A stretch of DNA of 48,304 nucleotides from the IMG/VR virus record IMGVR_UViG_2563366867_000009; one strand, written 5' to 3'. This stretch comes from a virus. Its lineage: Duplodnaviria > Heunggongvirae > Uroviricota > Caudoviricetes. Shown here one piece after another: positions 48,001 through 48,304 of the stretch. The stretch's first letter is position 1. Every line of letters starts with the position of its first letter. The position numbers were made by a program.

Positions 48001-48304
48001 TGCCGTATTTGTCCTTAACAAGGAGTTTTACGTCGGGACGATTACCGCCTGCGCCGCCATTTTTCGAAAAATAAGCGTCCAGTGCGTTATCGATCTCTCC
48101 GTTAAGTGATGCATTCTGCAACTTGTAATCAAGCCTGTAAGATTTAAGCCATGAGTTCGCCAGTTCGGTAATTTCCGGCTCAACAGATTTTACAGACTTT
48201 CTTGATTTACTGCTGGTCGCTGGTCGCTGGTCGCTGGTCGCTGGTCGCTGGTCGCTGGTCGCTGGTCGCTGGTCGCTGGTCGCTGGTCGCTGGTCGCTGG
48301 TCGC

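Follow-up and report, generated by a model that had tools for sequence, protein, structure and literature searches.

Results

Genes and features at the locus

The window analysed here, that is the whole stretch of 48,304 nucleotides filed as IMG/VR virus record IMGVR_UViG_2563366867_000009 (Caudoviricetes), carries near its right-hand edge a gene for a restriction-modification (RM) polypeptide and, directly downstream of it, a gene for a specificity (S) subunit, and it breaks off within an array of 7-bp repeats that precedes the RM gene (Table 1). The order of genes is that of a short-tailed Stx phage (Q antiterminator, hok/sok, RM and S, NanS-like esterase, holin, lysozyme and Rz, then terminase, portal, an N4-gp56-type capsid protein and an 8.4-kb LPD5-domain protein), and the RM and S pair occupies the place of stxAB in what is a Stx-phage-like lambdoid prophage without stx. 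The sole promoter-like site upstream of RM is TTGAAA-16-TAGAAT, just after Q, and no sigma-70 promoter was found between hok and the ATG described below.

Strain JNEC-KY173, whose tract has 66 units, is virtually identical in sequence to the window, and window ~6305-12304 is the only 6-kb piece which does not match that strain exactly. The hok/sok toxin-antitoxin module separates the Q antiterminator from the RM gene (2667-3446 in the near-identical locus L001; Rfam sok, 103 bits), and hok is frameshifted in several strains. In O111-type prophages, a Mom-family adenine methylcarbamoylation gene is also present upstream of Q (L002 1-309, L003 1-78), and together with the RM gene this means that these prophages may encode two DNA-modification functions. 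Other tandem repeats of the window are a 48-bp unit in 2.2 copies (26060-26163), within a YadA-like gene, and the 12-bp unit GATTTCATGATC in 4.4 copies (38741-38793).

Table 1. Features of the window, with strand and basis of assignment where given; residues count from the tract end.
Feature	Position in window	Strand	Basis
(GACCAGC)n, last 13.3 units, furthest from the start codon; in frame (DQRPATS)n	48212..48304	-	Tandem Repeats Finder, translation
30 codons from tract to TTG (SKSRKSVKSVEPEITELANSWLKSYRLDYK), conserved true N-terminus including first helix of nuclease domain	48122..48211	-	Alignment, model
Rest of RM polypeptide ORF, 653 aa from TTG (683 aa from tract end)	46160..48121	-	ORF call, Pfam, homologues
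PD-(D/E)XK nuclease domain, N-terminal, residues ~10-200	47612..48184	-	
Nuclease catalytic motif P59-D60 ... E78-x-K80	47972-48037	-	
N6-adenine methyltransferase core (Pfam N6_Mtase), residues 358-493	46733..47140	-	Pfam, Foldseek
Catalytic NPPY motif, residues 487-490	46742-46753	-	
S subunit gene, two target-recognition regions, directly downstream of RM	44982..46100	-	Methylase_S
In-frame 24-bp repeat (EELEAAHI), central in S gene, 3 core copies	45619..45685	-	Tandem Repeats Finder
NanS-like esterase	42398-44371		Annotation of matching genome (L030, covering window ~7780-44371)
Holin	41455-41670		Annotation of matching genome
Second hok/gef gene	19409-19549		Annotation of matching genome
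8.4-kb LPD5-domain protein	7780-16146		Annotation of matching genome
ISAba1-family IS4 element	5901-6991		Annotation of matching genome
S6-family autotransporter peptidase	274-4299		Annotation of matching genome

A Type IIB-like restriction-modification pair

By Pfam, the RM protein is matched by N6_Mtase (E=5e-21) and, weakly, by VRR_NUC at residues 31-87; its PD(59-60)...ExK(78-80) and NPPY(487-490) motifs are invariant among homologues, and the product of the S gene is matched by Methylase_S (E=3.5e-19) in two stretches. PDB sequences gave no match to the RM protein or its profile. With the RM model as query, Foldseek ranks the BsaXI RM subunit, from a Type IIB enzyme, first (E=2e-6), further matches being HsdM, BrxX/PglX and DrdV. 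The full-length AlphaFold model is poor (pLDDT 57) because its alignment is shallow, and the N-terminal domain was re-modelled alone.

PGAP labels the gene as a Type I HsdM, an identity we reject since TIGR00497 reaches 36 bits against a cut-off of 242.75, hsdR is absent nearby and an N-terminal nuclease domain is foreign to HsdM. Among NCBIfam models, hsdM and MAD2 matched below threshold only. Neighbourhoods in E. coli and Neisseria revealed no hsdR, and the pair of RM and S without hsdR recurs in Neisseria and Salmonella. Given the fusion of nuclease and methyltransferase, the S subunit, the missing hsdR, the BsaXI fold and the names used in phage and protein records ('BcgI alpha chain-like', 'restriction enzyme subunit alpha'), sequence and model together identify RM and S as a two-gene Type IIB-like (BcgI/BsaXI-like) system and not as a Type I or Type III methyltransferase. 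Thus, of the original prediction that the frame behind the repeats belongs to a methyltransferase of the mod/hsd kind, the methyltransferase stands, albeit as part of a Type IIB-like nuclease fusion rather than a mod or hsdM gene.

The EELEAAHI repeat in the S gene is itself polymorphic, with 2-4 copies in related loci and a difference of 4 versus 2 between OkiPb sibling isolates. In some genomes hsdS is annotated as 'split' or 'incomplete', which is a PGAP difference, the DNA being identical to that of loci annotated as intact.

The heptanucleotide tract and its open frame

Tandem Repeats Finder reports the array at the window edge (period 7, consensus GCTGGTC) as the top-scoring one of the window (score 186), with 13.3 copies, 100% matches and no indels; it terminates at the final base, i.e. 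it runs off the edge, and 93 nt of perfect period 7 cannot be chance. As the RM gene lies on the minus strand, the unit reads GACCAGC in the sense direction, with the tract at the 5' end of the gene. Translation of that strand from 48304 reads (ATSDQRP)n, then SKSRKSVKSVEPEITELANSWLKSYRLDYK and then the TTG at 48121 without any stop, the remaining two frames stop 1-9 codons past the tract, and neither sequence reading nor the ORF list gave an in-frame ATG, GTG or TTG between tract and TTG (48122-48211). This is what had been foreseen from the window: at least 13 perfect heptamers leading off its edge, a frame that stays open as (ATSDQRP)n and through the 90 bp behind the repeats, and no ATG or GTG in that stretch.

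All six frames stay open through the tract, and every sense frame encodes the DQRPATS heptad. PGAP places an antisense ORF over the tract (L001 3621-4103 and equivalents, overlapping window 48212-48304) and names it either hypothetical or a 'YXWGXW repeat-containing protein'; since its length tracks that of a tract open in six frames, it is in all likelihood an artefact of annotation. Folding of the tract is no better than that of shuffled controls on either strand, and we reject hairpin-driven instability on these grounds. The rest of the tract, the ribosome-binding site and the start codon lie beyond the window edge; in L001 the full tract comprises 66 units (3632-4093), preceded by an ATG at 3623.

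Start codon and true N-terminus

The last kb of the window has matches of 96.6-100% identity in 29 out of 5426 complete E. coli genomes, on the chromosome every time and with the tract present in all 29; one further diverged copy emerged from a more sensitive search (30/5426), and deposited phage PhiR12_3 (from ECOR13) is matched as well. In JNEC-KY173 the sequence ...CATAAAAGGATGATTTTATGCTGCCA stands directly 5' of the tract, and in each of the 26 loci extracted the tract begins immediately after AAAGGATGATTTTATGCTGCCA (AAGGA, a 7-nt spacer, then an ATG placed 9 nt ahead of the tract) without an intervening stop, so that the junction is ATGCTGCCA(GACCAGC)n. The diverged allele keeps the same context of ATG and ribosome-binding site. 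That the real start would lie beyond the repeats had been proposed along with a search upstream for it, and in the related loci this search has now delivered an ATG behind AAGGA (26/26) and no stop between ATG and tract. A second ATG is found 17 nt upstream of the tract and in a different frame, yet its overlap with the ribosome-binding site leaves it badly spaced; in the third upstream frame, a TGA at -16 is not followed by any start codon.

If instead the enzyme were made from an internal start (the TTG at 48121 or a later one), the tract could be a neutral or selfish minisatellite of the 5' leader with no role in switching, and PGAP does let the gene begin at TTG or further downstream in almost every genome. 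The 30 codons ahead of the TTG, however, are conserved: six residues (N19, W21, L22, S24, L27, Y29), all upstream of the TTG codon (residue 31), are invariant in a 20-sequence alignment, and helix 11-24 of the nuclease domain is confidently modelled (AlphaFold, full-length and N-terminal-domain models; block-mean pLDDT ~90). Nor did reading of the sequence before that TTG find any AGGA-like ribosome-binding site, in contrast to the ribosome-binding site and ATG that abut the tract at every locus, the diverged allele included. Homologues without repeats, too, start upstream of the TTG, those from Neisseria, Providencia and a Methylophilaceae MAG (72-73% identity) beginning M-x(2-10)-S(I/V)EPNIADLANGWLKSY and the Neisseria ones exactly at the point of tract insertion. 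The start sequence in repeat-free Neisseria flavescens DNA (ATG ACC CAA GCA AGC AAA AAA TCC AAC AAA TCC ATT GAA CCC) puts the insertion of the E. coli tract near codon 3-4 of the ancestral reading frame. As judged from this conservation, the annotated TTG start truncates the protein, and PGAP seems to have settled on TTG because most assemblies carry a broken frame; in the single genome that offered it an open frame, it annotated the long form, tract included. Even with the frame usage described below, which is about even and would suit an internal start, and the short alleles, which are in frame and would not, we consider translation from such a start improbable.

Copy number differs between otherwise identical loci

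Among the 26 loci from complete genomes or phages, the tract ranges from 16 to 120 copies or 112-840 bp (16, 23, 23, 30, 31, 56, ~58, 58, 64, ~65, 66, ~73, 76, 79, 80, 82, 83 in four loci, 88, 89, ~93, ~94, 99 and 120). With flanks of 1.5 kb upstream and 3.3 kb downstream (4.8 kb) compared, six O111-type loci have 31, 56, 58, 64, ~73 and 83 units and no flank mismatches, Symbioflor G1/2, G6/7 and G8 have ~93, 83 and 99 units and at most one flank mismatch, and UCPROB-001 and -002 differ by 76 versus 83 units without any flank mismatch; three OkiPb isolates, likewise with identical flanks, have 23, 30 and 23 units. Counting repeats in sibling isolates, one of the checks suggested at the outset, thus shows a number that varies (16-120) despite identical flanks, and differing copies between such flanks imply that change in the tract far outpaces the build-up of point substitutions. 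A rate of one change every few generations is too high, though, because 83 units are shared by three records with near-identical flanks. That the number 83 recurs, in four records altogether, is mostly identity by descent, as these three cases indicate, and we discarded the idea that it is an artefact.

IMG/VR contributes eight contigs which end within the tract and spanned alleles of 3, 3, 9, 9, 9, 16, 19, 34 and ~102 units, extending the overall range to 3 to ~120 copies. The diverged allele, with 79% nucleotide identity over the 5' 1.2 kb of the gene and an ORF dS of 1.3-1.55 that is near saturation, retains a pure GACCAGC unit, and a pure unit at this distance would be the product expected of ongoing slippage, which homogenises arrays.

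Short-read contigs do break at the tract, and some assemblies contain aberrant units of 6, 10 or 12 nt, as might be seen if the repeat were collapsed or inflated during sequencing or assembly. Set against this, the tract occurs in 26 independent complete genomes and phage records from many laboratories, at 112-840 bp and with the same junctions on both sides, and to our minds the chance that it is an artefact is practically negligible. The tract is pure in 21 of the 26 loci; in the other five the odd units may be sequencing errors, and the frame calls of these assemblies are unsafe for that reason.

The same copy numbers also mean that 16-120 near-Chi octamers line up at these loci: on the plus strand the unit plus one base is GCTGGTCG, one mismatch away from Chi (GCTGGTGG), which by our estimate has a chance of ~2% in a random heptamer array. 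Along with strands that lack hairpin potential, this could point to an array of Chi-like sites that modulates RecBCD, be it as a recombination hotspot or as protection of phage DNA, and whose coding position is incidental. Such a role would leave unexplained why the array sits after a ribosome-binding site and ATG, at ancestral codon 3-4, and abundance of the heptamer array in an unrelated Planctomycetota MAG rather suggests a sequence that expands easily; we rate a Chi-like function as highly improbable.

Reading frames follow the number of units

Since 7 leaves a remainder of 1 on division by 3, gain or loss of a single unit moves the frame by one position. When the copy number n is 0 mod 3, the ATG at -9 reads through into the RM gene (840 aa in JNEC-KY173, 917 aa in G8); when it is 1 mod 3, the ATG at -17 does so, and proteins that begin MILCCQTS(DQRPATS)n are found in databases; when it is 2 mod 3, neither ATG is in frame. 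Over the 26 loci this results in a split of 6 (ATG-9 in frame) to 8 (ATG-17 in frame) to 12 (out), indistinguishable from random, the last 12 having truncated ORFs. Out-of-frame alleles stop right after the tract, in keeping with the anticipated frame shift on change of a single copy.

ON frames are not enriched among long alleles (14/26 versus ~17 expected by chance), so for those strains the data fit an unselected tract equally well. Short alleles of the main type in IMG/VR, with 3, 3, 9 and 9 units, are all in frame with ATG-9; they give ORFs of 693 and 707 aa, and two run in frame off the contig end. The gene behind the tract is under purifying selection and not decaying, as is indicated by a downstream ORF that is intact in every OFF-frame locus and by a dN/dS of 0.05 between tract-bearing diverged alleles.

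In-frame alleles would encode anything from 1 to 40 DQRPATS heptads, and this, combined with the same heptad being specified by all three tract frames, raises the option that the tract is mainly a disordered N-terminal domain of variable length, a rheostat for activity or assembly for which ON/OFF frameshifting is a by-product. There is a model for this in NeuO, where catalytic efficiency increases linearly as heptads are added. Of the long alleles, however, about half are out of frame with both ATGs, and homologues without the extension are conserved at 72% identity. As the principal role of the tract we therefore think a rheostat hardly probable, even if it is compatible with a switch and the two could coexist.

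Carriers and spread of the tract

Carriers of the locus are O111:H8 EHEC, atypical EPEC, ECOR and probiotic strains. Beyond E. coli, one Escherichia sp. contig begins inside the tract, and a Salmonella contig, apparently broken within the tract, begins ACCAGC and continues with the junction of the diverged E. coli allele, so judging by these few contigs, the tract seems to travel with the RM module across species. Another Salmonella copy lies among genes of a conjugative element. The repeat itself, (GACCAGC)n with at least 4 units, is present at more than 80 places in Planctomycetota MAG JALHRW01 (maxbin.317; loci L052-L126) and also in Piscinibacter, Mitsuaria and Streptomyces contigs.

Discussion

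A candidate three-state switch for an RM enzyme

The tract at the window edge is probably the 3' end of a hypermutable (GACCAGC)n array that drives slipped-strand phase variation of a Type IIB-like RM gene, and we put the probability of this reading, for which we draw on differences between isolates and on frames read from assemblies, at about 80%. Replication slippage (slipped-strand mispairing) would add or remove whole units, and each such step would move the RM gene round a cycle of three states: full-length enzyme, strongly translated from the well-placed ATG (n = 0 mod 3), full-length enzyme started at the badly spaced ATG and probably weakly made (n = 1 mod 3), and an OFF state that is untranslated (n = 2 mod 3). 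In either ON state the enzyme would bear a disordered N-terminal extension of the form (DQRPATS)n/3, 1-40 heptads long. Within a population of lysogens, some cells are thus predicted to restrict and methylate DNA while others do neither, which would likely amount to bet-hedging that balances phage defence, cost and uptake of DNA; methylation across the genome might vary as well.

Because nuclease and methylase share one polypeptide, both would be lost together, and going OFF should be safe. The way back may be riskier: BcgI-like methylases have a preference for hemimethylated DNA, and a switch from OFF to ON on an unmethylated chromosome could for that reason be dangerous.

A wider scenario, rather doubtful to us at present, sees a stochastic switch between strong, weak and off at the stx position downstream of Q in Stx-phage-like prophages of EHEC/EPEC O111, commensals and probiotic Symbioflor strains, which would render lysogens and phage progeny epigenetically heterogeneous and be the first phasevarion-like system of E. 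coli. If this three-state switch holds, going from OFF to ON might cause self-restriction, an SOS response and prophage induction. With switching of the RM gene, sibling cells would be expected to differ in phage resistance, DNA uptake and methylome; recurrent assembly breaks and mis-annotated starts at the gene would find an explanation; the tract would serve as a ready-made, highly polymorphic typing marker; and whether phasevarions exist in E. coli would become directly testable. The locus would also add an RM enzyme to the genes switched by repeats, and would do so on prophages at the usual site of Shiga toxin.

Comparison with known systems

E. coli is, as far as we are aware, usually regarded as poor in repeat-driven contingency genes, and neuO is the only well-studied case on an E. 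coli prophage that we know of. Our search for papers that print two tandem units or the heptad peptide found none, bare-heptamer matches being swamped by primer sequences, and nothing of use came from our searches on MLVA loci or the nanS-p context.

The original prediction took a design of this kind to be unusual for an enterobacterial prophage, an expectation that does not hold, as there is a close precedent in neuO of the E. coli K1 prophage CUS-3. There, a heptanucleotide VNTR of 2-93 copies begins 2 nt after the start codon and is translated into heptads, copy numbers divisible by 3 turn the gene ON, and activity of the enzyme rises with the number of heptads. Both are accessory (moron) genes of E. 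coli prophages with a heptanucleotide repeat right after the start codon which is translated into hydrophilic, disordered heptads (RLKTQDS in NeuO, DQRPATS here). So position and translated heptads agree with a VNTR of the neuO type, whereas repeat unit and gene do not: AAGACTC (poly-psi) and GACCAGC are unrelated, and NeuO is a capsule O-acetyltransferase (hexapeptide acyltransferase), not an RM enzyme. Moreover, our locus has a second upstream ATG that may confer a third state, and its copies reach 120. On sequence grounds, the resemblance is one of design analogy, not of homology.

According to published accounts, phase-variable Type III mod and Type I hsdM or hsdS genes of Haemophilus, Neisseria, Moraxella, Streptococcus suis and Actinobacillus likewise contain, within their 5' coding region, repeats whose unit length cannot be divided by three and whose copy numbers are polymorphic between isolates. 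At the present locus four sequence features of an SSR phase-variation locus are found, namely a pure non-triplet 5' repeat, a start upstream of it, termination when out of frame and copy differences between siblings. Unlike these phasevarions, which concern Type I and III systems in host-adapted pathogens with small genomes, we deal with a Type IIB-like fusion, an E. coli prophage and a 7-nt unit; repeats of phasevarion mod and hsd genes mostly have units of 1-5 nt and shorter tracts than the one here. Differing in unit and in gene family, the locus is not homologous to the repeat-controlled Type I/III methyltransferases. A repeat survey of hsdM genes does not mention Escherichia, heptanucleotide repeats or GACCAGC in its main text.

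The RM pair itself resembles BcgI, BsaXI and NgoAVIII, the latter having been described as BcgI-like, in that an N-terminal PD-ExK nuclease and an NPPY-type N6-adenine methyltransferase form one polypeptide, encoded next to a separate HsdS-like S subunit and without HsdR. It differs from BcgI and BsaXI in having no detectable sequence match to solved structures. Within those portions of the BcgI and phase-variation literature that the search covered, no Type IIB system with a repeat switch is described. Comparable, too, are the phase-variable Type IIG RM fusions of, for example, Campylobacter jejuni (Cj0031) and Helicobacter pylori, which are governed by poly-G/C tracts and contain their own specificity domain. 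There, as here, a frameshift removes restriction and modification together because both reside in one polypeptide, yet our locus uses a heptamer array and a separate S subunit. As for the latter, EcoR124I and EcoR124II differ in a central hsdS repeat (TAEL, 12 bp, two or three times) that sets the spacer length of the recognition site, and the in-frame central repeat of the present S gene, in 2-4 copies, is a candidate for a similar change in spacer length, albeit with a unit of 24 bp (EELEAAHI) instead of 12 bp.

In sum, the heptamer-switch design is known from neuO and control of methyltransferases by repeats is known as well; what the sequences point to as new is a repeat-driven RM switch at the stx site of E. 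coli prophages.
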